Shown: piece by piece, positions 1-53,235 of the stretch | Position numbering within the stretch: the stretch's first letter is position 1 | How the letters are laid out: each line of letters opens with the position of its first letter | NCBI GenBank assembly: GCA_973895155.1 | Contig: OZ316895.1 | Span: forward strand, 14,194,225-14,258,224 | Direction of reading: 5' to 3' | Length of the DNA: 64,000 bases | From: Marsupella aquatica | Taxonomy: Eukaryota; Plantae; Marchantiophyta | Program-made: the position numbers and the translations under genes | The notes under the pieces: model-generated | Database searches by the model: none | Seen by the model: the letters and a program-made list of their open reading frames with translations, nothing else | What the model was told of the DNA's origin: nothing

Positions 1-2198
1 ACATCCATTTGATCTAACACCAGATCAAAAAACACAACAAGTTGACACAAAATTCGTATCGTGGAATACTTGGCAACTGGAGAGAAGACCTCATTGTAAT
101 CCACTCCCTTCTCTTGAGTGAATCCCTTGGCAACAAGCCTTGCCTTGTATATCTTGTCTCCTCCATCTGTAGAGTTGTCCTTCAGCTTGTAAATCCACTT
201 GCTATCCACCACTTGTTGATCACTTGGCAGCTGCACCAGCTCCCATGTTCTATTGTCACTTAAAGATTGTAACTCCCTCTGCATCGCTGCATTCCATTCA
301 TCTTTCTCGTCTGAAATGCACGCCTCATGATAAGAAGAAGGTTCTCCTTCTTCCAAGATCAGTGCTCTGTCATCATCTTCAGGTGCAATGTCAATAGCAT
401 CTAACCTTGATGAATCTGTCCATTCTCCATACCTTGTAGGAGCTCGAGTAGTACGTCTTGATTTTTTAGCTGATGATTCTGGTTGATCTTGTTCTGTTGG
501 TTGAATTTGAGGTATTCCAACAACAACTTGCTCCTCTTGTTCCAATACCGGAACCAACTCCATTCTCAAAGCACCTCCTTCATTTATGTCATGAAAAATC
601 TCATGACCAATCTCCCCCACAACATGGTCTAGGATAGGAGATTTACCTTTGTCAGTACGGGAAGCCTGAGCATTCTCCCCCTCCTTTGATGATCTGGATT
701 CATTAAAGGATACATCTCTACTGACAAGCAACGTACAAGCTTCTGGATCCCATAGCCTGTAACCTTTCACACCTGGTTGATAACCAAGAAAAAGACACTT
801 CTTGGAAGTAGAATCTAGTTTAGATCGATTCTGCTTAGGTGTGAGAGCACATGCATCACTTCCAAAGACTCTAAAAACCTGATAGTCTGCGTGCCGTCCA
901 TACCTCATTTCAAACGGCATTTTGAAATTGAGTGCACTTGAAGGAGAAAGATTTACCAAATAAGCTGTCGTATTTATAGCTTCAGCCCAAAATTCATGCG
1001 GTAAACCTGATTGGCTCAACATACTCCTCGATCGCTCCAATAGTGTTCGGTTTAGCCGCTCACAAACACCATTCTGTTGAGGAGTATAAATTGTCGTGAG
1101 ATGACGAGTAATCCCTTGCTTTGCACAATATAGTTCAAATTCACTTGAACTATACTCCCCGCCGTTATCTGATCGCAGATATCTCACCTTGGATCCAGTC
1201 TGATTCTCAATTTGGGCTTTCCACTTCTTAAAAGTGCCAAAAACTTCAGACTTGGCTTGTAGAAATGTGATCCACACATACCGTGAGTAATCATCAATGA
1301 ACGTGACATAGTACAATTTTCCAGAAAGTGAGGGAGTTGGGGCTGGACCCCACACATCACTATGTACATACTCAAGTATAGCTTTGGTATTGTGAGTTCC
1401 AACACCAAAGGTTCTCCTGTGCTGCTTCCCAAGTACACAGTGTTCACAAAAATCTAGCTTAGTAGATTCCAAATTAGAAAGAAGTCCTTTCCTGCAAAGT
1501 ACCGCCAAACCCTTTTCACTCATGTGTCCCAATCTGCAGTGCCATAACTGAGTCATCTCGCCTTGAGATCTAGTTACATTGGCTTCTTCACAAATCACGT
1601 TGCCCTCCAATAAATATAGATTCCTGTGCCGCTTACCCTTCATGACAACCTTGCCTCCGGTTGACACTTGAAGAATACCATCAGTAGAACTCCACCGACA
1701 TCCATTTGCTTCCAGCATTCCAAGAGAAATCAAGTTCTTTTTCATGTCAGGTATGTGTCTGACATTACTCACTGTTCGCACAGCTCCATCAAACATCTGA
1801 ATTTTCACGGATCCAATTCCAACAATTTGACAAGGATGATCATTCCCCATCAACACGGAACCGGTTGATACTGAGTAAGAAGTAAAAAACTCTTTCATAC
1901 AACAAATATGATAGGTACAGACACAATCTAAAATCCATTCATCACCGTTGTTACTGGATGAAATGCAAAGGGCAACATCTGGACTTCAGAAGATTTCATC
2001 ATCAAGCAAGTCAATCATATCAACATCAGTGGCTGCGTTTGCTGATGGTTGATGAGTTTGCTTGACTCGACAGTCTCGTTTCATGTGGCCAGGCTTGTTA
2101 CATTTCCAGCATATAATTGGTTTCCTTTCTAGAGATTTCTCTCTAGACCTGGATCTAGACTTAGACCGAGCCTTCTCCTTACCTCTATTCCGTGAGGG
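1..2198 (-). mobile_element. Ty1/copia fragment (gag C-terminus, protease, integrase, start of RT); inverted near-identical duplicate of 35669-37866
   Basis: Mirror coordinates sum to 37867 (ORFs 42..263/37604..37825, 1184..1447/36420..36683, 1986..2384/35483..35881 translate identically); zinc knuckle CWKCNKPGHMKRDC; only scattered SNPs versus 35669-37866. Confidence 0.95.
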
Positions 2199-2230
2199 AA
2201 CAAGAAGCCTTAAATGATGAGTAACAAGCC
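2199..2230 (+). repeat. Terminal inverted repeat, transposase end, copy 1
   Basis: aacaagaagccttaaatgatgagtaacaagcc; 27/32 match to reverse complement of 10328-10359, first 15 bp perfect. Confidence 0.9.
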
Positions 2231-2758
2231 CATACTTTAGGAACTCTAGCCAAAAAATCAGAAAAACAACGAAAAAGTCAAAAAAAGTGCAAAAATTAGC
2301 ACCTATTTTAGAGCAAAAATATGGAGCGAACAAAATATGACATAAACTAGCTATGTTTTGACACCTAAAAATGACCAAATTCATCTGAAGTTACATTCCA
2401 CCAATAAATGATCTCAAATACAACACTATTATCTACAATGGTCTCACAATTACACGAGGTGTCTTTTGAAACAACAACTAAATCACCTCCAAAAGCCATT
2501 GTCATTTAAAAACCAGAAAATAAATTACTACAACTTAACCTGATACACATTATTGTGAAAAGAAGACAAGGAGAATAGAAATGACACCATCTAATTGAAT
2601 TGAAACACAACCCACTAAGATAATATTAAACTACAAATTTCTCAAGAAACTTTAACCATGAATTCATGAATAAGTGGTAAAGGCATTTTGAAAATTTGTA
2701 AATTTTCAAGTTATCCATGTTTTTCAATGGTAATGTCACAAACAATAACTACTTTTCA

Positions 2759-5700
2759 TTACTCAGATCCAGAAGTTCTCAATTCTTGAAACAAAATATC
2801 CCTAGATTTATCTCCTAGCGGGGTTCTAGTTGATCCATTCTCTTGTTCTTGCTCTTTCTCTTCTGCCAAAAATTCAGTCAATCGGATTTTGATTCGATCT
2901 ACTATCTTTTTGTACAATGTATCAGATTTTGTCAACATGAAGTTGTAAGCAAAAACAGTCGTTGAAGATAAATCAAGCTCTTGGTGAAACCATATTGGTT
3001 TCAAAGTTCCTTTCCCACGACCACTTTTCTTCTTTTCGTAGTTTAAGACTTCTGGTAAGTACTTGGCTTTCCAAGGATCTGACCCGGTTTTTGGAGCATG
3101 CCATAAAACATAAATCATTTTTGGAATGTTGAACTCGTCGCGCTGGTCAATTCTTTCCACCTTGGCCACCCAAAATGTTTCCGATTCTTCTCCAGCAACA
3201 GAAATATAAGTGTTGACTTCAAGATCCGAAAAGTCTCCTTCCATATTCTCCTTCTCTGCATCTATCTTTCCTTGATTCCGATAAGGACCCACGTATATAT
3301 CTCTGGTAGGTCCGTATACTCTCTCTTCAATTTCCTCTTCATTGACAAGGACTCTGGGAACTTCAGCAGCAACAGCAATCTCCCTTTGGGAGCGTGGCCA
3401 TTGAAAAGGGAAAATCAATGGTCTTTGATCAAGGAGCAAAGATTTATTCAATTCCCGTTGCTCTTCAAAAAACATTCTCCACCAGTTCACTTCCTCTTCT
3501 AAGAATAAAGTTTCAACTGCAAGTATTCCCTTTTGAATCTCATTTAACGAATCATCCATCTCCTTCAAAGTCATTCTTGAAGAACTAGACATATTTGGTT
3601 GAGTCCTTGTAACGTTCTTATCCCCCTTTTTGAAAAGGGGTAATCCGGGAGCACAACCCATCACCTTTTCTGGCTCCTCTTCCCTCAAAAATTTCACGCC
3701 TCCGTCAGGTTTCCAAGTTGAGTCCGTGGAAAACTTCTTCCCCCATTGGGTTGGAACTTGATTTTCCAACTTTTCAAATGCAAATTTGTACTAGTGGTGG
3801 AAGGTAACATTTCGAATCCTTTCAATGACTAAAGGTGGATCTGAGAAGGCATATTGACGGAAATCATATGTTTCCTTTAAAAGAGCGATATTTGGTTGGG
3901 GTTGATATGATTCACAAATAATATCACATAGGCTTTCGTATGTGAATGCCTTAAACCTTGCTAGTCGTTTAGAAAATCGACTGAACATTTGATCTATTTG
4001 GTCGTGTGTGTGTCCAACCAACAAGAATCCTAGTTTGATTTTCCAAAAAACCTTTCTTCGAATCAACATATGAAGATAGGCAAAGAGTAAATTATTTTTA
4101 TTTTCTCTACTGGTATTATCAAGTTGAAGATAGAGAACAGGCGGCAAGCCACCAGGCTTTTCTTCCCATTCGTGAAACACCCTTTGCAGGATTGTGACTG
4201 TCAAGTTTCCATCATTATGCAATACAGGATAATTAAGAAACACTCTTGAAAATAGTGCACCATTGAAAACCAGGCATCCGACAATGTGCATTTGGATCAA
4301 ACATGTTTCGTCCACCGATTTTGGGGGCCGCGGCCAATGAGGCAACCTTGTCTTCTTCTGATCCATCCCATCAATGACAACTCCCAAATATTTATCAGAA
4401 TTTGAAAAACATTTCTTACGATGCTTCGCGAGTTTCTCACGTTCTTTGGATTGTTGGTCTCTATGTTTTTGTAACATAATTTCCCCTCGCCCTGGAAAAA
4501 CAACTTGTTAGTTTCTTCAAAAAAAATTAGAAATCATGTGTTAAGCCATATTCTTGAAACAAAAACTTGTCAAACTTGTAAGCAACTTACTCTTTTCGGT
4601 GTCCGAGACAGCTTTGTCCCGAATTGATTTGAACTCCTCGCAATCCGCGCAAGCACTGAATCGATTGACTGGAGGAATCTTCACATGACCAAATTCTTGA
4701 ACCCAAACTTTCAAGAATTGTCGATAGGATATTTTTGAAGATTCATCAATCTTGGCATAGTTGGAGTCGTAGATCTTCCATACCTCCAGCTTTGAATAAT
4801 TATCCGGTAAATGTGAAACTTCTTTATTTGGCAATGTTTCCACGCGTGTCTCAAAAAACGACCTAAGCCAACTGACCAAGACTAATCTTTTAACAGATGG
4901 AGGGCGTCCAACTGGTTTAGAATATCCTAAGTCTTGGTTGTCTAATTTCAAAATTCTATTTAATCTATGATTGCCAACGCAAAATATAAGCTTGAAAGCT
5001 TTCCGACAAATAATCTTTTGACCAAACGTGTAAGATATAGTCTGCCTCCCTCCTTCATTTCCGTCTCGCTTTATAAGCCACTGCAAAGATAAAGATCGAT
5101 CCTGAGATTTTTGCCTCAAAAATTTAGAACGGGCCTCACGAATTTCTTTTGGAGATAGACTTAGGAGACAATGACTCTGACAACAGTACTTACTATTTGT
5201 TTTCTTGATATCCTCCTCTTTCAACTTTGTTTCACACAAAGTGGCGTTGCTCGTACGTTTGTAACGACTAGATGCCACCGGAACATCATCATCCTCCCCA
5301 CTCTCCGAAGACTCGCTTTCATTCGATGATGAAATGGTCACCAACATTTGCTTCTGAACATGCCTAGATTCCAGACCTGCAGCCTTCGGAGATGGAGGCT
5401 CTTCCTTCACTCTATGCACCCTTGGAATACCTGGGCGTATTTCAGAAATCCCTCCATTACCGTGTAGGGACCCTTTCAATATTTTCCTAGGGTCCCTCTC
5501 CACCAGGTTGGTTTCCCTGTTTGAGTTTCCGTGACTTGATCCGCTCCCTGCCCCAACACCATGACTCCTAGGTAAAACTGAGGAACGCACATTAGAATTC
5601 TTTTCTGGAATACTTTTCAATAACACTGGTCGTCTAGTTTCTTCCCTCATCCCCCTGTGAAATGTTTCCGACGTTGGCTTACCAAAGGTTTTACTTTTTG

Positions 5701-6157
5701 GCATTTGCTTCAGCCGCTGAACACTTTGCAGACTGCAAAAATCTCTGTCATTTTCCCCACTTAGTGCCTTCTTCGTCTTTCCAAATCCAGTCTTCATGAA
5801 TTCATGAGACCGTTTCCCAGACATCCAAATAGGCATTGAACCTTCCAGATTACTCCCCAATTTGTCCTTTGTTGGTGACAAAGGAGATACAACTTGACGT
5901 CCAGGGGGACCAATACTCTCCAAGGAGTCAGAGGAGCTCCCTGACCTCTCTTTACCACCGACCAATGATTTCTTCCCACTAATTGCAAGTCGTAAAGGAC
6001 TACGTTTTAACTTGCTCATAGGGGTGGGGGGTGGCATATCTAAAACAGTAGTTATTCCAGGGATATCTGGGCCAACCACTGTGCAGGGGCCATCCGGCAA
6101 TGAAACATCATCAGAAACTCCATCTGAATAATCATCTGATTCGTAACACGCCGCCAT
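2759..6157 (-). pseudogene. Sola1-like DDD transposase, 2 exons (6157-4591, 4491-2759), ~1099 codons with one in-frame TAG at 3791-3793
   Basis: ORFs 4541..6157, 3791..4477, 2759..3769 join in frame through a GT-AG intron (4590-4492, CTAAC branch site) and across one stop; motifs SACADC, IDGMDQKK..P, LYLQLDNTSRENKN, FLLVGHTHDQIDQMFS. Confidence 0.8.
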
Positions 6158-6700
6158 TGGAAAAACTAGTGCAAATTGACAGGAAACTCAGAAAATCAGT
6201 AAAATCTAACAAATGTTCTCAAAATAATGACCAAGAGTCATGAATAAACGAGCCTATTTATAGTTTTTCACGGATTGTTGGGACTTTTTAACTTCAAAAA
6301 TATCAAATATTCATGAAATTTGCAAGCTTTTTCCCGTTAATACCCCGAAATATTCATGAATAATTGGCCCAAAAACATTGATTTATCATGATTCTGGGTT
6401 AATTTTACTAAGTCGCGCCTGATCCGTGATTAGTATGTATAACCAAGGAACACGGGGCAGCCCATTCATTTTCACTCAATGTCATTTGGATTTCCTTTGT
6501 AAAAGAGTGAAAAACAATCTCGCTATCCAATTTCGTGCCATTTTCAGCACTCATCGGCGACGTGTCGCGAGTTGTCTCGGTCGCACTTCATTTCGACCCT
6601 GTTTTAGGTAGTAATTTAGGCCCTGGGTGATTTCTTCACGTCACCCCCCTCCAAACCCTATTTTAAATACCCTTCTGCATCACCGAGGTGTACAAGCAAA

Positions 6701-6811
6701 GAGAGAGGAGACTCCCTTCATGAATTCATGAAGGTCGGAGCGAGAGGGAGACTCCCTTCATGAATTCATGAAGGTCGGAGCGAGAGGGAGACTCCCTTCA
6801 TGAATTCATGA
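6701..6811. repeat. 40-bp tandem repeat (3 cores) containing the 20-bp palindrome CCTTCATGAATTCATGAAGG
   Basis: Unit cgagagggagactcccttcatgaattcatgaaggtcggag read directly; last core partial. Confidence 0.95.
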
Positions 6812-6976
6812 TAGGAGTCCTGGGGTGGCCGAGAGCGTTGTTAGATCCGTAAGGACACGGTTTTAGTAGCCATTTGTTGGCACATTCCTTGGTTCTGTGG
6901 CACTTTGTCTCGCAGGTTGGGGTTGAAGTGGACTGATTTTGTGGTATGTTCTCAGGTTTGAAGATCAGGCAAAAAC

Positions 6977-9900
6977 ATGACAATGTCGCAGGAAGAGCTG
7001 GTGGATGACATCTTTTCGCGCCATCCTTTGACGGACTTCCACAACTCATCCTGGACGATTTCCTTAGGGACGGAAACATGGAAGAAGCCCTTCCTAATGC
7101 TGTGTGTATTTGAGGGGCTTCCATCGGGGGCATTAGGGTGGGTAAATTACGGCCGCATCGATGTATTTCGACGGGGCGACGAAGTTGTGAACATGTTGAT
7201 CACAACGAAGGAAACATCAACTTTGATTGTCGTGGATGTGGAGAGGTTTTCTGGAACGGCTGCCACCTGCTATCTCGATGAGGACATCGATAGCATCATT
7301 GAGACTGTCAAGTCTCTTTCGAGTGAGGAACGTTACCACGACATCGCGGGAAAGATTTCCGGTTTTGTGTTTGAATTTCACGCTAGCACTTTAAAGAGTG
7401 CAATCCGAAAATCAAGAGAGATTCTCCGGAAAAGGTCGGCAGAGAAGGGAGTAAGTCGTCCACCCAAATCTGGGGCTTCCGGTGTTCCTTCTGGATCGAG
7501 GCCTAGCATTTTACCCGATGATATTTTGACCGTGGTAGCGCCTACAACCTCCCGGGAAGCAGCAGCATCTGGAGGGGGATCTCAAGTTGGCAGATCATCC
7601 CAGGGAACGGCTTTGACTGGTGGGTCGGCACAAGGTACGACTGGAACTCGCATTTCTTCAAAGAAGCGACCTGCTATGACTCCTGAGCCTACCGAGCCCA
7701 GTGCTACAAAGTCAAAAAAGAAGACTTTGGAGAAAATTCCAACGCATTTGGAGCAAAAGGCTCAATCAATGTCAATGGATGCACGGGTATTGTACCAGGA
7801 GGAGATTCTGGGAAGATGTGGTGTTCAAGAGGAGACCGTGACCGTTGACATTGGTCAACTTTACCCTCCAGTGAGAGAGAAGGCTGTGGGCTTGCCCATT
7901 TACCAGGTCCGACACATCCAACCATATTTCTTGACCCAATTGACCTTGCGGATGAAGACTGTAGGTGCCAGTCCACTTGCAGCTTCGTTTGTCCTCTTGG
8001 TGGATCCGAAGGAGTGTGCTACTAGGCAAGACTTTGATTTTTCAAGGAAAGCTGATTACCATTATTATGTGATTGGGGGCAACCATTCAGCCTGTGCCAA
8101 AGCAGACCTTGCTCTTCAGTTCCCTAACAACAAGGCATTTTGGAGAGTGCAATCTTGGATATTTGCGGGATTGAGTGTGCAAGAGGCAAGAAACCTTGCG
8201 TGGAGTCACAATATTGATTCTGAATTTCGACAACAGATGACGACAATCCAGAGAGTAAATTATATTCACATGAGATTTGTTGAGAATGGATTGTCGTCCA
8301 ACCAGGATTTCAAGAAAGAGTGTGCTACTGAAATCAATCTCAAGGATTGGGGTGTACGAAAGGATGCTGAGGTTCTTAATGCCAATGATAACCTATTTCA
8401 GTTGGCATTCCGACAAGATCCTGTGTGGTCATTTGTGAGGCAGATTTGTGACAAGTGGGAGATGTGTGAGATCAAAGGTCAAAAAGGAGACAAAGGCAAG
8501 AAGAAAGTCTCTAAGTCTGGAGATGCCAAATTGCCTTATGAGGACATGAAATTAACAGAGTGGAGACACATGCAGGCCTTGAAAGATCCTGATATGATTT
8601 GCCCAGTGTTACAGAGAGTTCTTACTAAAGAACTCTCTTTACAGGAAATGGGTCACGAATTTACTCGACACAAATTTCAGATGCAGGTGCAGAAGGCCCT
8701 CCTCACGTGTCTACACGAGGAGAGTTGGTCAGGTTGTAAAACCAAGTACCCTGAGCATTGCACAGACAATGTGCTTAAGAATTTTGTACCTGTTTTCCAG
8801 ACATGGGTAAGATTCTGTCACCTTTCTTTGAATGATTGTTTGAATTCATTTAATATTTGGAATCCTTGTTTCTAATTCTACAGTTCCTTTTTGTAGAAAG
8901 ATACCACCTCCCGGAAAAAGAAGGGAGATGAGGAAGGCAAAGATCTCAAGTCATTCCCGGACAAATTCAATGCGCATATTGTGCAAGCCCAAAATTGGCT
9001 ATCCATGAAGACTTCTAGTCGGCAAACCCAAGAGGGGGAACTTCATCCAAATTCGTTTGAGCATCCAGAGTTTGGTGATGTGCACTATGATATTTTTACT
9101 CATGATGCTCAGCGATTACATGAGGTGGTTCCGGGTCGGGCTTACACATTAGCTTTAGTGGATATTCCCTACGGGTTTGCATTGCCTGGATGTCTTCATG
9201 AAGACACTATTGGATGGGGAACTGAGGAGATCACAAAAATGGTCCAATCGTTCAAGGTGGCTACTACTGCAAAGTTGTGGCGTATTATCATTCACCACAG
9301 CCTTGACCAATATGAGGCCATCAAGACCATTTTGAAAGCGGAGTGTAATGGAGGGTTCCAGAATTGTGTGTGGTAAGAAATATTTGTTTTTGAAAAAAAC
9401 AACTATTAGTTATTCATGATTTCATGAACCATGTTTCTCAGTTTAAATAACTCCTTGACTTTTTGTGACTTTTCAGGGTTAAGGATAATGTGAAGAATGC
9501 TGGTGGACCAAGATTGAACAGCAACTTTGAGTGCTTTACAATTGGCTTTCACAGCCAGGATGGTAAACGGTCATTGGAGCACTTCAATTTTGACACAAAT
9601 GAATCAAGGAACAATGTGGTTGTATGCGCAGCTGTGACTAAGAAGCTGAAACACAACGGGGATAACAAGGCAGTGAATGTTTATCAGAAACCACGTGCAT
9701 TGTTAGATTGGGAAGTGAGTCATTTTAGTCAGGTTGGAGACTGGGTTTTGGATATTTGTTCAGGATCAGGGACTGGGACAACCTCCTCCTTGGCCATGGG
9801 GAGATATTGCGTTGCCATTGAGATTGACGAGCGACAGAGCAGTGTGTTGAAAGGGAGGATTCTTAACCTTGCAGATAACATTGAAGAGGAAGACGGACAG

Positions 9901-10038
9901 GGGGAGATGGATGAGGAGAGTGAGGAAGACATTCCTCAGGCCGGAGAGGATAGCGTGGTTGACGATGCCACAATTGTTCTAGAATTGACGACAGGGACTT
10001 CCGGAACCGAGGAAGGGGAAGCGGTCCCTTTGGATTAG
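6977..10038 (+). CDS. ParB/Srx-like domain fused to beta-class N6-adenine/N4-cytosine DNA methyltransferase, 3 exons (6977-8806, 8897-9372, 9477-10038), 955 aa
   Basis: Two GT-AG introns (8807-8896, 9373-9476) join the three ORFs in frame; motif IV-like LALVDIPYG, VWVKDN across intron 2, YQKPRALL, motif I VLDICSGSGT, GRYCVAIEID; YYVIGGNHS resembles the ParB/Srx core. Confidence 0.85.
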
Positions 10039-10327
10039 ACTAGATAAATAGAGGGACTCGTAGCATGTGAAACCACTTGGGCTTAAGTTGGGTTATATTT
10101 TGTAAAACTTTGAGTTTGACTTAAACTCTGATCGATGAGTTTGATTTTGATTACTTTTATAAAGTGCATATTTCAAGGTTTATACAATTGTGAGAATATC
10201 ATATAAGATATGCTTAGATTTTGGTGGTAAAATTCTCTTGAGTCTAGTTTGGAAAATACATACCATTTTTTGGTGGTTTTTTGGTATACACTTTTTAATA
10301 TCATGAAGATTTTGAAAAGAGAAATAA

Positions 10328-10359
10328 GGCTTTGGACTCATCCCTTAAGGCTTCTTGTT
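10328..10359 (-). repeat. Terminal inverted repeat, methyltransferase end, copy 1
   Basis: ggctttggactcatcccttaaggcttcttgtt. Confidence 0.9.
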
Positions 10360-10779
10360 CTTGCTTCTGCTAAGCTCCTTACCGTCATCTTATCAGGGCT
10401 TGAAACAGGTGCTCTTGTACAAAGATCTGAAGTCCATTTTGTATGATGAGGTGGTGAGCTCTTTACTGTCTGATGATGCTCCGAAGAAGTTGGGTCAAGC
10501 ACAGACAACATCTTCTTCTGCGTTGAATGTGAACCGTGGAAGATAGACTAGCGCAGTGCACGAATGGGCATAACAGATTGAGATCTACATCACGGGGGAG
10601 ATCTAAATCCAGAGGGAAATCGCAAGAGAGGAAGCCTCTTGCATGTTGAAGATGTGGTAAGCTTGGCCACATGGAAAGGGATTGTCGAGTAAAGGACCCT
10701 ACCCCATTAGCTAACGCGGTATCAAGCGCACATGAGGTAGATTTACTCGATGATGATGACATTTTATGATGCCAAGGTT

Positions 10780-11076
10780 CTCGGGGGTCTCACTATATGG
10801 GGACCTCCCCATCACCTACGACGTTTTTAGGCCTTGGACCCCCTAAAATGTAAGAAAAAATTATTATTTTTTAACCCCTATAAAGTTGGAATATTCTTGG
10901 AATATTCTAAAAATTGAATTAAAAAGGCCCTAATGTTCTTATAAGTCTCAAAATTGAATTTAAAAGACCCTATTGTTCTTCTACAAAAATTCTTAAGTTT
11001 TCCCTTACAACCAATAAAATGACCCTATCCTTCGTCGCACATGATATGCCATTTTTGTGGAAGTGAAACCCCCGAG
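10780..11076 (+). mobile_element. MITE (family 1), 297 bp
   Basis: TIR CTCGGGGGT(C/T)TCACT; 8-bp TSD ccaaggtt/ccaagatt; its removal restores the copia frame. Confidence 0.85.
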
Positions 11077-27467: not shown

Positions 27468-27788
27468 AACAAGAAGCCTTAAGGGATGAGTCCAAAGCCT
27501 TATTTCTCTTTTCAAAATCTTCATGATATTAAAAAGTGTATACCAAAAAACCACCAAAAAATGGTATGTATTTTCCAAACTAGACTCAAGAGAATTTTAC
27601 CACCAAAATCTAAGCATATCTTATATGATATTCTCACAATTGTATAAACCTTGAAATATGCACTTTATAAAAGTAATCAAAATCAAACTCATCGATCAGA
27701 GTTTAAGTCAAACTCAAAGTTTTACAAAATATAACCCAACTTAAGCCCAAGTGGTTTCAAATGCTACGAGTCCCTCTATTTATCTAGT

Positions 27789-30700
27789 CTAATCCAAAGG
27801 GACCGCTTCCCCTTCCTCGGTTCCGGAAGTCCCTGTCGTCAATTCTGGAATAATTGTGGCATCGTCAACCACGCTATCCTCTTCGGCCTGAGGAATGTCT
27901 TCCTCACTCTCCTCATCCATCTCCCCCTGTCCGTCTTCCTCTTCAATGTTATCTGCAAGGTTAAGAATCCTCCCTTTCAACACACTGCTTTGTCGCTCGT
28001 CAATCTCAATGGCAACGCAATGTCTCCCCATGGCCAAGGAGGAGGTTGTCCCAGTCCCTGATCCTGAACAAATATCCAAAACCCAGTCTCCAACCTGACT
28101 AAAATGACTCACTTCCCAATCTAACAATGCACGTGGTTTCTGATAAACATTCACTGCCTTGTTATCCCCGTTGTGTTTCAGCTTCTTAGTCACAGCTGCG
28201 CATACAACCACATTGTTCCTTGATTCATTTGTGTCAAAATTGAAGTGCTCCAATGACCGTTTACCATCCTGGCTGTGAAAGCCAATTGTAAAGCACTCAA
28301 AGTTGCTGTTCAATCTTGGTCCACCAGCATTCTTCACATTATCCTTAACCCTGAAAAGTCACAAAAAGTCAAGGAGTTATTTAAACTGAGAAACATGGTT
28401 CATGAAATCATGAATAACTAATAGTTGTTTTTTTCAAAAACAAATATTTCTTACCACACACAATTCTGGAACCCTCCATTACACTCCGCTTTCAAAATGG
28501 TCTTGATGGCCTCATATTGGTCAAGGCTGTGGTGAATGATAATACGCCACAACTTTGCAGTAGTAGCCACCTTGAACGATTGGACCATTTTTGTGATCTC
28601 CTCAGTTCCCCATCCAATAGTGTCTTCATGAAGACATCCAGGCAATGCAAACCCGTAGGGAATATCCACTAAAGCTAATGTGTAAGCCCGACCCGGAACC
28701 ACCTCATGTAATCGCTGAGCATCATGAGTAAAAATATCATAGTGCACATCACCAAACTCTGGATGCTCAAACGAATTTGGATGAAGTTCCCCCTCTTGGG
28801 TTTGCCGACTAGAAGTCTTCATGGATAGCCAATTTTGGGCTTGCACAATATGCGCATTGAATTTGTCCGGGAATGACTTGAGATCTTTGCCTTCCTCATC
28901 TCCCTTCTTTTTCCGGGAGGTGGTATCTTTCTACAAAAAGGAACTGTAGAATTAGAAACAAGGATTCCAAATATTAAATGAATTCAAACAATCATTCGAA
29001 GAAAGGTGACAGAATCTTACCCATGTCTGGAAAACAGGTACAAAATTCTTAAGCACATTGTCTGTGCAATGCTCAGGGTACTTGGTTTTACAACCTGACC
29101 AACTCTCCTCGTGTAGACACGTGAGGAAGGCCTTCTGCACCTGCATCTGAAATTTGTGTCGAGTAAATTCGTGACCCATTTCCTGTAAAGAGAGTTCTTT
29201 AGTAAGAACTCTCTGTAACACTGGGCAAATCATATCAGGATCTTTCAAGGCCTGCATGTGTCTCCACTCTGTTAATTTCATGTCCTCATAAGGCAATTTG
29301 GCATCTCCAGACTTAGAGACTTTCTTCTTGCCTTTGTCTCCATTTTGACCTTTGATCTCACACATCTCCCACTTGTCACAAATCTGCCTCATAAATGACC
29401 ACACAGGATCTTGTCGGAATGCCAACTGAAATAGGTTATCATTGGCATTAAGAACCTCAGCATCCTTTCGTACACCCCAATCCTTGAGATTGATTTCAGT
29501 AGCACACTCTTTCTTGAAATCCTGGTTGGACGACAATCCATTCTTAACAAATCTCATGTGAATATAATTTACTCTCTGGATTGTCGTCATCTGTTGTCGA
29601 AATTCAGAATCAATATTGTGACTCCACGCAAGGTTTCTTGCCTCTTGCACACTCAATCCCGCAAATATCCAAGATTGCACTCTCCGAAATGCCTTGTTGT
29701 TAGGGAACTGAAGAGCAAGGTCTGCTTTGGCACAGGCTGAATGGTTGCCCCCAATCACATAATAATGGTAATCAGCTTTCCTTGAAAAATCAAAGTCTTG
29801 CCTAGTAGCACACTCCTTCGGATCCACCAAGAGGACAAACGGAGCTGCAAGTGGACTGGCACCTACAGTCTTCATCCGCAAGGTCAATTGGGTCAAGAAA
29901 TATGGTTGGATGTGTCGGACCTGGTAAATGGGCAAGCCCACAGCCTTCTCTCTCACTGGAGGGTAAAGTTGACCAATGTCAACGGTCACGGTCTCCTCTT
30001 GAACACCACATCTTCCCAGAATCTCCTCCTGGTACAATACCCGTGCATCCATTGACATTGATTGAGCCTTTTGCTCCAAATGCGTTGGAATTTTCTCCAA
30101 AGTCTTCTTTTTTGACTTTGTAGCACTGGGCTCGGTAGGCTCAGGAGTCATAGCAGGTCGCTTCTTTGAAGAAATGTGAGTTCCAGTCGTACCTTGTGCC
30201 GACCCACCAGTCAAAGCCGTTCCCTGGGATGATCTGCCAACTTGAGATCCCCCTCCAGATGCTGTTGCTTCCCGGGAGGTTGTAGGCGCTACCACGGTCA
30301 AAATATCATCGGGTAAAATGCTAGGCCTCGATCCAGAAGGAACATCGGAAGCCCCAGATTTGGGTGGACGACTTACTCCCTTCTCTGCCGACCTTTTCCG
30401 GAGAATCTCTCTTGATTTTCGGATTGCACTCTTTAAAGTGCTAGCGTGAAATTCAAACACAAAACCGGAAATCTTTCCCGCGACGTCGTGGTAACGTTCC
30501 TCACTCGAAAGAGACTTGACAGTCTCAATGATGCTATCGATGTCCTCATCGAGATAGCAGGTGGCAGCCGTTCCAGAAAACCTCTCCACATCCACGACAA
30601 TCAAAGTTGATGTTTCCTTCGTTGTGATCAACATGTTCACAACTTCGTCGCCCCATCGAAATACATCGATGCGGCCGTAATTTACCCACCCTAATGCCCC

Positions 30701-30850
30701 CGATGGAAGCCCCTCAAATACACACAGCATTAGGAAGGGCTTCTTCCATGTTTCCGTCCCTAAGGAAATCGTCCAGGATGAGTTGTGGAAGTCCGTCAAA
30801 GGATGGCGCGAAAAGATGTCATCCACCAGCTCTTCCTGCGACATTGTCAT
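27789..30850 (-). CDS. ParB/Srx-like + beta-class N6/N4 DNA methyltransferase, copy 2 (exons 30850-29021, 28930-28455, 28350-27789), 955 aa
   Basis: Mirror of 6977-10038; open frame, same splice sites, DIPY and DICSGSGT intact. Confidence 0.85.
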
Positions 30851-31015
30851 GTTTTTGCCTGATCTTCAAACCTGAGAACATACCACAAAATCAGTCCACT
30901 TCAACCCCAACCTGCGAGACAAAGTGCCACAGAACCAAGGAATGTGCCAACAAATGGCTACTAAAACCGTGTCCTTACGGATCTAACAACGCTCTCGGCC
31001 ACCCCAGGACTCCTA

Positions 31016-31166
31016 TCATGAATTCATGAAGGGAGTCTCCCTCTCGCTCCGACCTTCATGAATTCATGAAGGGAGTCTCCCTCTCGCTCCGACCTTCATG
31101 AATTCATGAAGGGAGTCTCCCTCTCGCTCCGACCTTCATGAATTCATGAAGGGAGTCTCCTCTCTC
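31016..31166. repeat. 40-bp tandem repeat (4 cores) with 20-bp palindrome, copy 2
   Basis: One more unit than 6701-6811, accounting for the 40-bp length difference. Confidence 0.95.
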
Positions 31167-31604
31167 TTTGCTTGTACACCTCGGTGATGCAGAAGGGTAT
31201 TTAAAATAGGGTTTGGAGGGGGGTGACGTGAAGAAATCACCCAGGGCCTAAATTACTACCTAAAACAGGGTCGAAATGAAGTGCGACCGAGACAACTCGC
31301 GACACGTCGCCGATGAGTGCTGAAAATGGCACGAAATTGGATAGCGAGATTGTTTTTCACTCTTTTACAAAGGAAATCCAAATGACATTGAGTGAAAATG
31401 AATGGGCTGCCCCGTGTTCCTTGGTTATACATACTAATCACGGATCAGGCGCGACTTAGTAAAATTAACCCAGAATCATGATAAATCAATGTTTTTGGGC
31501 CAATTATTCATGAATATTTCGGGGTATTAACGGGAAAAAGCTTGCAAATTTCATGAATATTTGATATTTTTGAAGTTAAAAAGTCCCAACAATCCGTGAA
31601 AAAC

Positions 31605-31612
31605 TATAAATA
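31605..31612 (+). promoter_or_regulatory. Putative TATA box of the transposase gene
   Basis: TATAAATA ~105 bp upstream of ATG 31710 (mirror at 6255-6262). Confidence 0.45.
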
Positions 31613-31709
31613 GGCTCGTTTATTCATGACTCTTGGTCATTATTTTGAGAACATTTGTTAGATTTTACTGATTTTCTGAGTTTCCTGTCAATTTGCACTA
31701 GTTTTTCCA

Positions 31710-34700
31710 ATGGCGGCGTGTTACGAATCAGATGATTATTCAGATGGAGTTTCTGATGATGTTTCATTGCCGGATGGCCCTTGCACAGTGGTTGGCCCAG
31801 ATATCCCTGGAATAACTACTGTTTTAGATATGCCATCCCCCACCCCTATGAGCAAGTTAAAACGTAGTCCTTTACGACTTGCAATTAGTGGGAAGAAATC
31901 ATTGGTCGGTGGTAAAGAGAGGTCAGGGAGCTCCTCTGACTCCTTGGAGAGTATTGGTCCCCCTGGACGTCAAGTTGTATCTCCTTTGTCACCAACAAAG
32001 GACAAATTGGGGAGTAATCTGGAAGGTTCAATGCCTATTTGGATGTCTGGGAAACGGTCTCATGAATTCATGAAGACTGGATTTGGAAAGACGAAGAAGG
32101 CACTAAGTGGGGAAAATGACAGAGATTTTTGCAATCTGCAAAGTGTTCAGCGGCTGAAGCAAATGCCAAAAAGTAAAACCTTTGGTAAGCCAACGTCGGA
32201 AACATTTCACAGGGGGATGAGGGAAGAAACTAGACGACCAGTGTTATTGAAAAGTATTCCAGAAAAGAATTCTAATGTGCGTTCCTCAGTTTTACCTAGG
32301 AGTCATGGTGTTGGGGCAGGGAGCGGATCAAGTCACGGAAACTCAAACAGGGAAACCAACCTGGTGGAGAGGGACCCTAGGAAAATATTGAAAGGGTCCC
32401 TACACGGTAATGGAGGGATTTCTGAAATACGCCCAGGTATTCCAAGGGTGCATAGAGTGAAGGAAGAGCCTCCATCTCCGAAGGCTGCAGGTCTGGAATC
32501 TAGGCATGTTCAGAAGCAAATGTTGGTGACCATTTCATCATCGAATGAAAGCGAGTCTTCGGAGAGTGGGGAGGATGATGATGTTCCGGTGGCATCTAGT
32601 CGTTACAAACGTACGAGCAACGCCACTTTGTGTGAAACAAAGTTGAAAGAGGAGGATATCAAGAAAACAAATAGTAAGTACTGTTGTCAGAGTCATTGTC
32701 TCCTAAGTCTATCTCCAAAAGAAATTCGTGAGGCCCGTTCTAAATTTTTGAGGCAGAAATCTCAGGATCGATCTTTATCTTTGCAGTGGCTTATAAAGCG
32801 AGACGGAAATGAAGGAGGGAGGCAGACTATATCTTACACGTTTGGTCAAAAGATTATTTGTCGGAAAGCTTTCAAGCTTATATTTTGCGTTGGCAATCAT
32901 AGATTAAATAGAATTTTGAAATTAGACAACCAAGACTTAGGATATTCTAAACCAGTTGGACGCCCTCCATCTGTTAAAAGATTAGTCTTGGTCAGTTGGC
33001 TTAGGTCGTTTTTTGAGACACGCGTGGAAACATTGCCAAATAAAGAAGTTTCACATTTACCGGATAATTATTCAAAGCTGGAGGTATGGAAGATCTACGA
33101 CTCCAACTATGCCAAGATTGATGAATCTTCAAAAATATCCTATCGACAATTCTTGAAAGTTTGGGTTCAAGAATTTGGTCATGTGAAGATTCCTCCAGTC
33201 AATCGATTCAGTGCTTGCGCGGATTGCGAGGAGTTCAAATCAATTCGGGACAAAGCTGTCTCGGACACCGAAAAGAGTAAGTTGCTTACAAGTTTGACAA
33301 GTTTTTGTTTCAAGAATATGGCTTAACACATGATTTCTAATTTTTTTTGAAGAAACTAACAAGTTGTTTTTCCAGGGCGAGGGGAAATTATGTTACAAAA
33401 ACATAGAGACCAACAATCCAAAGAACGTGAGAAACTCGCGAAGCATCGTAAGAAATGTTTTTCAAATTCTGATAAATATTTGGGAGTTGTCATTGATGGG
33501 ATGGATCAGAAGAAGACAAGGTTGCCTCATTGGCCGCGGCCCCCAAAATCGGTGGACGAAACATGTTTGATCCAAATGCACATTGTCGGATGCCTGGTTT
33601 TCAATGGTGCACTATTTTCAAGAGTGTTTCTTAATTATCCTGTATTGCATAATGATGGAAACTTGACAGTCACAATCCTGCAAAGGGTGTTTCACGAATG
33701 GGAAGAAAAGCCTGGTGGCTTGCCGCCTGTTCTCTATCTTCAACTTGATAATACCAGTAGAGAAAATAAAAATAATTTACTCTTTGCCTATCTTCATATG
33801 TTGATTCGAAGAAAGGTTTTTTGGAAAATCAAACTAGGATTCTTGTTGGTTGGACACACACACGACCAAATAGATCAAATGTTCAGTCAATTTTCTAAAC
33901 GACTAGCAAGGTTTAAGGCATTCACATACGAAAGCCTATGTGATATTATTTGTGAATCATATCAACCCCAACCAAATATCGCTCTTTTAAAGGAAACATA
34001 TGATTTCCGTCAATATGCCTTCTCAGATCCACCTTTAGTCATTGAAAGGATTCGAAATGTTACCTTCCACCACTAGTACAAATTTGCATTTGACAAGTTG
34101 GAAAATCAAGTTCCAACCCAATGGGGGAAGAAGTTTTCCACGGACTCAACTTGGAAACCTGACGGAGGCGTGAAATTTTTGAGGGAAGAGGAGCCAGAAA
34201 AGGTGATGGGTTGTGCTCCCGGATTACCCCTTTTCAAAAAGGGGGATAAGAACGTTACAAGGACTCAACCAAATATGTCTAGTTCTTCAAGAATGACTTT
34301 GAAGGAGATGGATGATTCGTTAAATGAGATTCAAAAGGGAATACTTGCAGTTGAAACTTTATTCTTAGAAGAGGAAGTGAACTGGTGGAGAATGTTTTTT
34401 GAAGAGCAACGGGAATTGAATAAATCTTTGCTCCTTGATCAAAGACCATTGATTTTCCCTTTTCAATGGCCACGCTCCCAAAGGGAGATTGCTGTTGCTG
34501 CTGAAGTTCCCAGAGTCCTTGTCAATGAAGAGGAAATTGAAGAGAGAGTATACGGACCTACCAGAGATATATACGTGGGTCCTTATCGGAATCAAGGAAA
34601 GATAGATGCAGAGAAGGAGAATATGGAAGGAGACTTTTCGGATCTTGAAGTCAACACTTATATTTCTGTTGCTGGAGAAGAATCGGAAACATTTTGGGTG

Positions 34701-35108
34701 GCCAAGGTGGAAAGAATTGACCAGCGCGACGAGTTCAACATTCCAAAAATGATTTATGTTTTATGGCATGCTCCAAAAACCGGGTCAGATCCTTGGAAAG
34801 CCAAGTACTTACCAGAAGTCTTAAACTACGAAAAGAAGAAAAGTGGTCGTGGGAAAGGAACTTTGAAACCAATATGGTTTCACCAAGAGCTTGATTTATC
34901 TTCAACGACTGTTTTTGCTTACAACTTCATGTTGACAAAATCTGATACATTGTACAAAAAGATAGTAGATCGAATCAAAATCCGATTGACTGAATTTTTG
35001 GCAGAAGAGAAAGAGCAAGAACAAGAGAATGGATCAACTAGAACCCCGCTAGGAGATAAATCTAGGGATATTTTGTTTCAAGAATTGAGAACTTCTGGAT
35101 CTGAGTAA
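31710..35108 (+). pseudogene. Sola1-like DDD transposase, copy 2 (exons 31710-33276, 33376-35108; in-frame TAG at 34074-34076)
   Basis: Donor A|GTAAGT at 33277, branch ACTAAC, acceptor TTTTCCAG at 33375; spliced frame ...TEKRRGEIMLQKH...; same motifs as copy 1. Confidence 0.8.
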
Positions 35109-35881
35109 TGAAAAGTAGTTATTGTTTGTGACATTACCATTGAAAAACATGGATAACTTGAAAATTTACAAATTTTCAAAATGCCTTTACCACTTATTCA
35201 TGAATTCATGGTTAAAGTTTCTTGAGAAATTTGTAGTTTAATATTATCTTAGTGGGTTGTGTTTCAATTCAATTAGATGGTGTCATTTCTATTCTCCTTG
35301 TCTTCTTTTCACAATAATGTGTATCAGGTTAAGTTGTAGTAATTTATTTTCTGGTTTTTAAATGACAATGGCTTTTGGAGGTGATTTAGTTGTTGTTTCA
35401 AAAGACACCTCGTGTAATTGTGAGACCATTGTAGATAATAGTGTTGTATTTGAGATCATTTATTGGTGGAATGTAACTTCAGATGAATTTGGTCATTTTT
35501 AGGTGTCAAAACATAGCTAGTTTATGTCATATTTTGTTCGCTCCATATTTTTGCTCTAAAATAGGTGCTAATTTTTGCACTTTTTTTGACTTTTTCGTTG
35601 TTTTTCTGATTTTTTGGCTAGAGTTCCTAAAGTATGGGCTTGTTACTCATCATTTAAGGCTTCTTGTTCCCTCACGGAATAGAGGTAAGGAGAAGGCTCG
35701 GTCTAAGTCTAGATCCAGGTCTAGAGAGAAATCTCTAGAAAGGAAACCAATTATATGCTGGAAATGTAACAAGCCTGGCCACATGAAACGAGACTGTCGA
35801 GTCAAGCAAACTCATCAACCATCAGCAAACGCAGCCACTGATGTTGATATGATTGACTTGCTTGATGATGAAATCTTTTGA

Positions 35882-38686
35882 AGTCCAGATGTTGCCCTTT
35901 GCATTTCATCCAGTAACAACGGTGATGAATGGATTTTAGATTGTGTCTGTACCTATCATATTTGTTGTATGAAAGAGTTTTTTACTTCTTACTCAGTATC
36001 AACCGGTTCCGTGTTGATGGGGAATGATCATCCTTGTCAAATTGTTGGAATTGGATCCGTGAAAATTCAGATGTTTGATGGAGCTGTGCGAACAGTGAGT
36101 AATGTCAGACACATACCTGACATGAAAAAGAACTTGATTTCTCTTGGAATGCTGGAAGCAAATGGATGTCGGTGGAGTTCTACTGATGGTATTCTTCAAG
36201 TGTCAACCGGAGGCAAGGTTGTCATGAAGGGTAAGCGGCACAGGAATCTATATTTATTGGAGGGCAACGTGATTTGTGAAGAAGCCAATGTAACTAGATC
36301 TCAAGGCGAGATGACTCAGTTATGGCACTGCAGATTGGGACACATGAGTGAAAAGGGTTTGGCGGTACTTTGCAGGAAAGGACTTCTTTCTAATTTGGAA
36401 TCTACTAAGCTAGATTTTTGTGAACACTGTGTACTTGGGAAGCAGCACAGGAGAACCTTTGGTGTTGGAACTCACAATACCAAAGCTATACTTGAGTATG
36501 TACATAGTGATGTGTGGGGTCCAGCCCCAACTCCCTCACTTTCTGGAAAATTGTACTATGTCACGTTCATTGATGATTACTCACGGTATGTGTGGATCAC
36601 ATTTCTACAAGCCAAGTCTGAAGTTTTTGGCACTTTTAAGAAGTGGAAAGCCCAAATTGAGAATCAGACTGGATCCAAGGTGAGATATCTGCGATCAGAT
36701 AACGGCGGGGAGTATAGTTCAAGTGAATTTGAACTATATTGTGCAAAGCAAGGGATTACTCGTCATCTCACGACAATTTATACTCCTCAACAGAATGGTG
36801 TTTGTGAGCGGCTAAACCGAACACTATTGGAGCGATCGAGGAGTATGTTGAGCCAATCAGGTTTACCGCATGAATTTTGGGCTGAAGCTATAAATACGGC
36901 AGCTTATTTGGTAAATCTTTCTCCTTCAAGTGCACTCAATTTCAAAATGCCGTTTGAAATGAGGTATGGACGGCACGCAGACTATCAGGTTTTTAGAGTC
37001 TTTGGAAGTGATGCATGTGCTCTCACACCTAAGCAGAATCGATCTAAACTAGATTCTACTTCCAAGAAGTGTCTTTTTCTTGGTTATCAACCAGGTGTGA
37101 AAGGTTACAGGCTATGGGATCCAGAAGCTTGTACGTTGCTTGTCAGTAGAGATGTATCCTTTAATGAATCCAGATCATCAAAGGAGGGGGAGAATGCTCA
37201 GGCTTCCCGTACTGACAAAGGTAAATCTCCTATCCTAGACCATGTTGTGGGGGAGATTGGTCATGAGATTTTTCATGACATAAATGAAGGAGGTGCTTTG
37301 AGAATGGAGTTGGTTCCGGTATTGGAACAAGAGGAGCAAGTTGTTGTTGGAATACCTCAAATTCAACCAACAGAACAAGATCAACCAGAATCATCAGCTA
37401 AAAAATCAAGACGTACTACTCGAGCTCCTACAAGGTATGGAGAATGGACAGATTCATCAAGGTTAGATGCTATTGACATTGCACCTGAAGATGATGACAG
37501 AGCACTGATCTTGGAAGAAGGAGAACCTTCTTCTTATCATGAGGCGTGCATTTCAGACGAGAAAGATGAATGGAATGCAGCGATGCAGAGGGAGTTACAA
37601 TCTTTAAGTGACAATAGAACATGGGAGCTGGTGCAGCTGCCAAGTGATCAACAAGTGGTGGATAGCAAGTGGATTTACAAGCTGAAGGACAACTCTACAG
37701 ATGGAGGAGACAAGATATACAAGGCAAGGCTTGTTGCCAAGGGATTCACTCAAGAGAAGGGAGTGGATTACAATGAGGTCTTCTCTCCAGTTGCCAAGTA
37801 TTCCACGATACGAATTTTGTGTCAACTTGTTGTGTTTTTTGATCTGGTGTTAGATCAAATGGATGTTGTTACTGCTTTTCTCTATGGCACCTTGGAAGAA
37901 CAAATTTTCATGAGGCAACCACTGGGCTTTGTGAAGAAGGGCCAAGAGAGTTTAGTTTGCAGGTTGCTTAAGTCCTTGTATGGATTGAAGCAAGCTCCTT
38001 GACAGTGGAACAAGCGGTTTGATGATTTCATGTTTGCACAAGGATTCACTAGGATGGTGTATGACCTTTGTGTTTATACGAAATCAGTCAAGATTGGTGT
38101 GTTTGGTTTGCTCATTCTGGTGCTCTATGTGGATGACATGTTGATTGTGGCTAAGGATCAAATTGAGGTTGACAAACTCAAAGAAAAATTGAGTTCTGAA
38201 TTCCGAATGAAGGATCTTCGGAAAGCCAAGAGGATCTTAGGTATGGAGATTACGAGGAACTTTAAAACTGGACAATTGTGGCTGAATCAAGGCAAGTATG
38301 CTGAAAAGGTACTTGCAAGATTCAACATGGAAAATTGTAAGCCAGTAAGTATTCCTTTGGCTCCACATTTCAAGTTATCATCGGCTTTCTGCCCCACGGA
38401 TCCAATGGAGAGAGGCTTGATGACTAAGATTCCTTATGAGAAGGCAGTGGGTAGTCTAATGTATTTGATGACATGTACCAGGCCTGATCTAGCCCTAGCA
38501 ATGGGCAAAGTGAGTAGATTCATGTCAAATCCAGGGAAGATACATTGTGAGGCTGTGAAATGGATTCTCAGGTATCTTAAAGGCACAATAGACTATGGTC
38601 TGTTCTTTGATAGTAGATCAAACAAAACCAAATCTTTGGTTGGCTATGTAGATTCTGACTACGGAGGCTGTCTGGAAACAAGGAGG
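35882..38686 (+). pseudogene. pol: pol of copia D (PR, GAG-pre-integrase, INT, RT, start of RNase H), one stop at 38000-38002
   Basis: ORFs 35969..38002 and 38030..38698 in one frame: WHCRLGHMS, HSDVWGP, SDNGGEY, PQQNGVCER, LYGLKQAP, LYVDDML. Confidence 0.95.
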
Positions 38687-52749: not shown

Positions 52750-53235
52750 AAAAGATGTCGTGACGGCCAAGATGTCGTTCCCGATGTCCTTGAGAACAAA
52801 AGAGGTCATGTCGGCCAAGAGGTTGTTGAGAATAAAGATGTCATGTCGGCCAAGAGGTAGTTGAGAAGAAAGGTGTAGTGTCGGCCAAGAGGTCGTTGAG
52901 AAGAACGATGTTGTGTCGCCCAAGATGTGAGAACAAAAGATGTTGTGTTGGCCAAGATGCTGGTGATAACAAAAGATGTCGTGTCGGCCAAGAGGTCATT
53001 GAGAAGGAAAATGTCGTGTTGGCCAAGAAGTCGTTGAGGACAACAGATGTCATGTCTCCCATTCAAGATGTTATTAAGAAAAAAGATGTCGTGTCATCTA
53101 AGATGTCATTAAGAAAAACAAATGTTGTGTTGCCCAAGATGTTGTTGTTTAAAAAAAAAGATGTGGTGTCACCCAAGATGCCGTTAAGAAAAAAAGATGT
53201 GGTGTCGCCCAAGATGTTCTTAAGAAAAAAATCTT
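52750..53235. repeat. ~35-bp tandem satellite, about 13 degenerate units
   Basis: Consensus approx AAAGATGTCGTGTCGGCCAAGAGGTCGTTGAGAA(N). Confidence 0.9.

Follow-up and report, generated by a model that had tools for sequence, protein, structure and literature searches.

The window analysed here is a 64,000-nucleotide stretch of the liverwort Marsupella aquatica (contig OZ316895.1, positions 14,194,225 to 14,258,224) that holds two copies of a gene predicted, from motif and fold comparisons, to encode a ParB-like domain fused to a beta-class amino-methyltransferase, a gene that is almost certainly the cargo of a DNA transposon. Copy 1 lies on the forward strand and starts with exon 1 (6977-8806, residues 1-610), followed by a GT-AG intron of 90 nucleotides (8807-8896, phase 0). 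Exon 2 (8897-9372) encodes a linker and the first half of the methyltransferase, including motif IV (DIPY, residues 699-702), and is followed by a second GT-AG intron, of 104 nucleotides (9373-9476, phase 2), with a palindrome at 9414-9427. Exon 3 (9477-10038) encodes the target-recognition region, a QKP motif, motif I (DICSGSGT, residues 861-868) and an unconserved acidic tail. Once joined, the exons translate as 955 uninterrupted codons followed by a stop, which reproduces the gene structure proposed in an earlier analysis of the letters alone (the sequence-only reading). As that analysis had also seen, the second intron splits the TGG codon of Trp769 in CVWVK, that is, within the W-x-K block. 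Copy 2, on the reverse strand (27789-30850; exons 30850-29021, 28930-28455 and 28350-27789), is likewise open over 955 residues, so that the description of the gene as intact in both copies holds.

The splice model is, on comparative grounds, better than chance, because of three sets of relatives. First, GT-AG introns of 89-104 nucleotides occupy the same two positions, in the same phases, in all three related metagenome loci (L001-L003), where the counterpart of intron 2 also contains the palindrome. Second, a search with exon 1 returned 12 homologous proteins with 54-70% identity, 11 of which terminate a few residues past the same W-V read-through of the donor site, the twelfth ending earlier. 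Third, an independent gene model from Calypogeia fissa (P0013) is continuous across both predicted junctions. Contigs of four sequencing runs, compared over 1800-10800, include pieces that cross the introns unspliced, and none of the 15 contig joints listed matches either intron; neither observation bears on expression. In L001 (about 2085-2310) and L002 (about 1008-1122) there is an apparent extra intron, at one shared N-terminal coding position and absent from the window gene, that appears to reflect gain or loss inside the family.

Exon 1 was modelled with a mean predicted local distance difference test score of 71. The predicted structure comprises an N-terminal folded domain (about residues 5-157), a disordered linker (158-263), a ParB-type N-terminal domain (285-419, with GGNHS at 367) and a helical region resembling the DNA-binding part of ParB (421-566). 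A Foldseek search with this model returned Noc or ParB proteins in all of the top 12 rows (best E-value 3e-5), and structure alignment placed residues 285-419 on Caulobacter ParB (7bm8) with Z 10.2 and a root-mean-square deviation (rmsd) of 2.4 over 98 residues; KorB, a repressor of the ParB family, was also among the fold matches (Z 8.2). Sequence profiles (Pfam, PHROGs and PDB) did not detect ParB; the resemblance was detected from the predicted structure only. Both halves of the protein also occur in single open frames elsewhere, for example in P0043, P0048, P0069 and P0168. The first 157 residues (window 6977-7450) form a confidently predicted domain that is conserved in close relatives. 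A PH-like fold was considered for residues 20-141 and set aside, as the matches were weak (Z at most 4.3), and the fold is left unnamed.

For the C-terminal part, exon 3 alone scores 33.7 bits with the Pfam N6_N4_Mtase model (cut-off 26.7, passed by nine of the ten relatives scanned), and the motif order is that of the beta class, with DIPY N-terminal to DICSGSGT. This region is therefore a predicted beta-class amino-methyltransferase. The family profile aligns with the DPPY and DPFFGVG regions of CcrM. Both motifs are present where the sequence-only reading had placed them; it had taken them for odd variants, and in this respect the alignment speaks otherwise, since D-x-P-Y and D-L-C/F-x-G-S/T-G are the norm of the family. 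In the 69 rows aligned over motif IV, Asp is the first residue in 64, the second position is not Pro in 63, and Tyr is the fourth residue in 57; Cys stands at the third position of motif I in 62 of 98 rows. The acidic tail that was also pointed out is present (38% Asp or Glu in the last 55 residues) but is not conserved, the corresponding share being 11-29% in eight relatives.

These departures from the canonical motifs raise the question of whether the enzyme works. A methyltransferase half that is weak or dead throughout the family, leaving a protein whose sole role is to bind specific DNA sequences or to assist transposition, would fit the rarity of Pro at position 2 of motif IV, the members in which this motif reads DLPR, DIPS or DIPH, the Cys of motif I, and the altered S-adenosylmethionine-binding loop of two of the three close relatives (GFGT in L001 and GSST in L003). 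We nevertheless consider this explanation quite unlikely, given that Asp, Pro and Tyr of motif IV, W-x-K and QKP are kept across Chara, liverworts, a fern, Ginkgo and distant members, that DIPY is found in characterised N6-methyladenine (6mA) enzymes, and that many of the database rows are decayed transposon copies. Selection points the same way. By Nei-Gojobori counting, the rates of non-synonymous (dN) and synonymous (dS) substitution in the methyltransferase domain are 0.25-0.26 and 2.3 or saturated between the window and L001-L003, and 0.13-0.15 and 1.3-2.5 among L001-L003, so that the ratio among distant copies, for which the sequence-only reading had named a value near 1 as its refutation, instead indicates purifying selection, as strong on this domain as on the ParB half. 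The family is thus probably catalytically active, as far as conservation can tell.

If it is active, we would expect with good confidence that the product is 6mA rather than N4-methylcytosine (4mC), as the sequence-only reading had also leaned. In the HindIII-like group of N6-adenine beta-class enzymes, motif IV is reported to read DIPY (PMC12294265), and among solved structures the family profile matches CcrM best (5e-17), followed by other 6mA beta enzymes, far above the solved 4mC enzymes N4CMT (2e-7) and PvuII (2e-5). An enzyme that makes 4mC, like Marchantia DN4MT1 and bdelloid N4CMT, would share the same Pfam domain and beta-class order; the specificity of this domain is reported to have switched repeatedly between 6mA and 4mC (PMC8885841), and a 4mC writer has been described from a liverwort (10.1101/2021.02.12.428880). 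Such a product seems improbable all the same: DN4MT1 and N4CMT carry (T)SPPY, the signature of eukaryotic 4mC writers, which is absent from the window protein, where DIPY stands instead, and Ser is the first residue of motif IV in only one of the 69 rows.

The gene lies within a transposon whose copy 1 spans 2199-10359 (8,161 bp) and ends in terminal inverted repeats (TIRs) that are perfect over 15 bp (2199-2213, forward strand, beginning AAC, and 10345-10359, reverse strand) and extend imperfectly to about 32 bp; its flanks, AGGG and CTTG, show no target site duplication (TSD). Copy 2 (27468-35668, reverse strand, 8,201 bp) is inserted in a Copia gag, with a 4-bp TSD, CCCT, and the host gag is read in one frame on both sides of the insertion. 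The methyltransferase gene is arranged head-to-head with a transposase gene on the reverse strand (2759-6157; exons 6157-4591 and 4491-2759, with a GT-AG intron of 99 nucleotides), which has 1,099 codons, with an in-frame stop at codon 756 (3791-3793), and is assigned to DUF7869 by Pfam (E-value 1e-48). The model of a transposase homologue 63% identical to it aligns with the transposase domains of Mos1 and SETMAR (Z 8.4-8.5, rmsd 4.2, 166 aligned residues), consistent with an RNase H-like core, and three Asp residues are conserved in the DUF7869 family (37 sequences); Foldseek by itself ranked PIWI domains first for this homologue.

The alternative to a cargo gene, namely a domesticated host gene caught in a segmental duplication, or else a bacterial contaminant, is hardly credible. 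A host gene would fit the lack of a TSD at copy 1 and the flank of more than 2 kb that this copy has in common with copy 2. Opposed to it are the position of the gene inside the TIRs, the 4-bp TSD of copy 2, the contigs of the four sequencing runs, which show many diverged variants along the element, and the pairing with a transposase that is kept in other elements: L001 has a divergent gene whose start resembles the window transposase, and in Riccia sorocarpa the DUF7869 gene R1sor_010795 is numbered beside the ParB-methyltransferase R1sor_010796, with R1sor_020635 near R1sor_020633, and within each pair the two genes are recorded on contigs of equal length.

The element is likely of Sola1 type, judging by its TIRs, the 4-bp TSD (seen in one of the two copies) and the DDD/E-like RNase H core. 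Insect Sola1 elements are reported to prefer AWWT targets (PMC3845634), a rule outside which the single TSD of the window, CCCT, falls (n = 1), and for Ectocarpus Sola1-1 the description gives only a bias for the TSD to end in A (PMC12477816). A DUF7869 protein of Ectocarpus was also matched (E-value 1e-9), one not known as the transposase of Sola1-1_Ec32. Copy 1 belongs to an inverted duplication (window 1-10359 against 27468-37866) that includes at least 2.2 kb of the Copia flank of copy 2, with two differences in 2,198 bp, and a second Copia gag abuts its right repeat exactly. The missing TSD of copy 1, the left flank in common with copy 2 and the exact end at the right repeat together suggest an inverted duplication made by the transposase, through alternative (sister-chromatid type) transposition. 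The independent junctions at 10360 and 27467 both lie in Copia gag, and with the two gag sequences aligned (10361 against 27227) they are about 240 bp from each other; a target preference for Copia gag is possible (n = 2).

The element also carries a palindrome, TCATG-N4-CATGA, with exact copies found five times in copy 1 and six times in copy 2 and not at all in the remaining 47,638 bp of the window. With up to one mismatch it occurs seven times in the 8,161 bp of copy 1 against four times in the 47,638 bp outside, and the looser CATG-N4-CATG is present six times in copy 1, where simulation gave a mean of 0.17 and a maximum of 2 in 300 simulations. Upstream of the methyltransferase gene, a 40-bp tandem array (6701-6811) has TCATG-AATT-CATGA in each unit (6718, 6758 and 6798), and the array of copy 2 has one extra unit. 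A further copy lies within the 5' coding region of the transposase gene (5794-5807), and one with a single mismatch 3' of that gene (2656-2669). The arrangement recurs in the relatives, where intron 2 contains the palindrome in all four loci and intron 1 in none of them (chance about 5e-5 per intron), and where upstream pairs or triples spaced 40-42 bp are found in the three loci that reach far enough, the pairs of L001 and L002 being 40 and 42 bp apart. At 10 of the 13 exact sites of copy 1 and L001-L003, the four bases in the centre are self-complementary. Their sequence depends on the element, with AATT in the window, either ATAT or ATTT in L001, and CTAG at all three L002 sites. Symmetry, together with constancy inside each element and change from one element to the next, is the pattern to be expected if a ParB-type dimer co-evolved with its site. 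The palindrome is probably a parS-like docking site of the ParB-like half, and by analogy with ParB on parS there is a fairly good chance that a dimer of the protein docks on this two-fold symmetric sequence. Two other functions were considered and found unlikely: a subterminal transposase site, as no copy comes closer to the two ends than about 460 and 930 bp, and an RNA hairpin, as the centre is itself self-complementary at most sites. GATC is not enriched in the element, and GANTC occurs at 5.0 per kb in the element against 2.8-5.5 outside.

A profile-library search returned 410 relatives at an E-value of 0.001 or better. Among the 29 of these that were looked up, the relatives with a named organism were from Chara braunii (seven), Riccia sorocarpa (three), Ginkgo biloba (one) and Adiantum nelumboides (one); the family thus ranges over Calypogeia, Riccia, Adiantum, Ginkgo and Chara, with named relatives only in streptophytes, and the nearest named relative of the window gene is from a liverwort. 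Phage records were matched by P0016 (210) and P0168 (71), at 23-28% identity among the matches listed, and P0013 matched no phage protein. None of 91 pattern matches in viral contigs was confirmed as a relative, nor was any of 43 in prokaryote genomes, a search sensitive to close relatives only. An unrooted tree of methyltransferase cores (38 of 153 aligned rows after a coverage filter) was dropped as evidence of origin because of weak deep support. Since both introns stand at identical positions in three relatives whose synonymous sites are near saturation, the residence of the gene in eukaryotes is, by this comparison, old. A contaminant is further opposed by the spliceosomal nature of the introns and by prokaryotic relatives that reach only about 25% identity, and on these sequence grounds bacterial contamination is excluded. 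Long residence in eukaryotes rather than contamination, which the sequence-only reading had deduced from the introns, is thus borne out by the conserved intron positions, the restriction of named relatives to streptophytes, the distance to phage proteins and the failure to find a close relative in prokaryote genomes or viral contigs.

These elements can be assembled into a mechanism. A cut-and-paste DNA transposon of likely Sola1 type would carry the intron-bearing accessory gene; the ParB-like half of its product would dock on the element's own TCATG-N4-CATGA palindromes; the fused methyltransferase would add 6mA in or near them; and the mark would keep the shared divergent promoter active against silencing by 5-methylcytosine (5mC), in a manner reminiscent of VANC. 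Taken as a whole, a cargo ParB-methyltransferase that docks on palindromes, methylates adenine and aids expression of its element is, in our judgement, an evenly balanced proposition. Its most speculative step is the last, that the mark favours expression from the shared divergent promoter, which we reach by analogy and which could equally well hold or fail; 6mA is reported to accompany expressed genes in surveyed eukaryotes (PMC12695648). A bolder version, which we regard as rather doubtful, is that of a streptophyte-wide transposon lineage with a private circuit, in which a ParB-derived reader would dock on a co-evolving palindrome, found even in the intron of the enzyme's gene, and the fused methyltransferase would use 6mA to keep the element open in the face of silencing by host 5mC.

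Docking and an active enzyme could also have the opposite effect, the mark or the bound protein restraining the element through self-repression of the promoter, a shield against re-insertion or transposition tied to replication. Such autoregulation would suit palindromes placed as these are, around the promoter that both genes share, within the 5' transposase coding sequence and inside an intron of the methyltransferase gene itself, and the fold match to KorB is a match to a repressor. The association of 6mA with expressed genes (PMC12695648) and the anti-silencing role of VANC, the one self-modifying transposon protein cited in a preprint on Bostrychia (10.1101/2025.02.11.637652), speak against restraint, both indirectly for this gene, and we hold it to be unlikely, though less so than a dead enzyme.

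Several observations weigh against the proposed docking, methylation and activation. The choice between an activating and a repressing direction is made by analogy, and the reported switching between 6mA and 4mC counts against a firm call on the base. The evidence on the palindrome comes from four loci, in which tandem copies are not independent, and plain CATG is about as frequent in the element as expected (39 against 36). The DNA-binding part on its own matches modestly (residues 421-566 against Spo0J 128-225, Z 5.4), even if alignments to the whole of ParB include these residues, at high rmsd. Across the family, GGNHS/T or GGGHx stands at the probable nucleotide-binding patch. ParBs that bind cytidine triphosphate carry an arginine in that patch (GxRR). 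Sliding-clamp behaviour is accordingly not established by the comparison, the patch being without arginine and its equivalence of position only probable.

The state of the two window copies also weighs against it. The stop at codon 756 of the transposase is present in both (in copy 2 near 34074-34076), and the same codon is sense in contigs of all four sequencing runs; because the stop is common to both copies and not found in those contigs, the window copies derive from a non-autonomous copy. In the methyltransferase gene, 16 coding bases separate the copies; 15 of these changes are non-synonymous and one is synonymous, where about five of the 16 would be synonymous under neutrality (P about 0.016 by simulation), an excess that may be due to chance or to selection against active copies. 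Private changes have hit conserved residues in each, namely P337, R389, F575 and H879 in copy 1 and E436, V487 and K503 in copy 2. The intactness of both copies, which had been read as a sign of function, therefore loses its value, with no purifying signal between them; 16 random substitutions create no stop in 58% of 20,000 simulations. It is true, as was remarked, that none of the 15 amino-acid differences falls in DIPY or DICSGSGT, an uninformative fact given that 16 random substitutions spare those 12 residues in 87% of 20,000 simulations. Selection maintains the family, not these two copies, whose intactness reflects youth. With a broken transposase and methyltransferase changes that look unselected, the copies are probably young and decaying. 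Across the element, 21 of the 24 differences between them are transitions. Outside it, the window contains two unrelated tandem arrays, at 52783-53231 (units of 35-36 bp) and 59592-59702 (units of 9-18 bp).

The introns and the supposedly variant motifs are in themselves ordinary, and the interpretation rests on the ParB-like half, the transposon context and the palindrome. Transposon ParB-methyltransferases have received brief mentions for algae, with no assay in the portions of that literature consulted, and the present locus extends them to land plants and Chara, with long purifying selection and stable introns. It also supplies handles for assays: a candidate site that varies from one sister element to another, a catalytic residue that can be mutated and a predicted base. 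Should the enzyme be active, land plants, which are described as poor in such enzymes (PMC4738411), would have in it a natural source of 6mA at specific loci. The element would then join VANDAL as a second type of transposon that modifies itself, and the enzyme might serve as a compact tool for site-directed methylation. If the private circuit were real, sequence-targeted 6mA in the DNA of land plants would be made by a transposon and not by the host.

The closest parallel is found in the brown alga Ectocarpus, where Sola1-1_Ec32 is described as carrying a ParB and N4/N6 methyltransferase accessory gene proposed to bind and modify its own element, with similar proteins cited for green and red algae (PMC12477816). 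As in the window, the description has the two domains in one protein (1,104 residues there, 955 here), the accessory gene on the strand opposite the transposase, a 4-bp TSD and termini that start with AAC. Compared by description only, it differs in size and ends, with 21.5 kb and TIRs of 282 bp against the 8.2 kb and 15-32 bp of the liverwort element, and the portion of the description at hand gives neither a binding site or motif nor any analysis of intron conservation or selection. Another Sola1 element, Sola1-1_PPa, is presumably from a moss. Its transposase is reported as the closest to that of Sola1-1_Ec32 (PMC12477816). A literature search found no description from a land plant; Iyer et al. 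2011, Bao et al. 2009, the Repbase entry Sola1-1_PPa and the Bostrychia supplements may list plant members. In Bostrychia, the Plavaka genes PAG2 and PAG3 are reported as transposon-borne and encode a PF01555 methylase and a ParB-like domain, with tandem inverted repeats beside the ParB gene PAG3 that are proposed there as its site (10.1101/2025.02.11.637652). In these EnSpm/Plavaka elements, however, two separate genes encode a fusion of the methylase with SET and one of the ParB domain with a 2-oxoglutarate oxygenase, whereas the window has one protein.

Among enzymes, the methyltransferase half resembles CcrM (PDB 6pbd) and M.PsaI/M.HindIII in having motif IV before motif I, W-x-K and QKP, and the HindIII group, as reported, in DIPY (PMC12294265). 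Unlike these, the window gene has no restriction partner, a large ParB-like N-terminal half and spliceosomal introns; the distance is that of a profile E-value of 5e-17 to CcrM and of about 25% identity to phage enzymes. Phage fusions of ParB and methyltransferase (PV036459.1 XPP58209.1; PHROG 498) have the same order of domains, ParB N-terminal to a beta-class methyltransferase. The methyltransferase halves of the two groups align at an HH probability of 97.8, no profile alignment was obtained between the ParB halves, and a viral fold search with the exon 1 model placed ParB-family phage proteins on top. The phage fusions have DPPY and DLFGGSG where the window protein has DIPY and DICSGSG. 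No single donor can be named. Bacterial-type beta-class enzymes resident in eukaryotes are also reported as Marchantia DN4MT1 (10.1101/2021.02.12.428880) and bdelloid N4CMT, which likewise acquired conserved introns (PMC8885841). These are described as host genes that produce 4mC, with (T)SPPY and no ParB domain, whereas the window gene is transposon cargo. In function, the analogy is with VANC of VANDAL, an accessory protein reported to recognise a short motif, specific to its element, that lies in introns, between genes and in tandem repeats (PMC5735166). Homology between the two proteins is not expected, and they differ in that VANC removes 5mC via host factors and the window protein is predicted to add a methyl group itself. 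Set beside these systems, the window gene joins a known kind of transposon ParB-methyltransferase, and the candidate binding site is the new addition.

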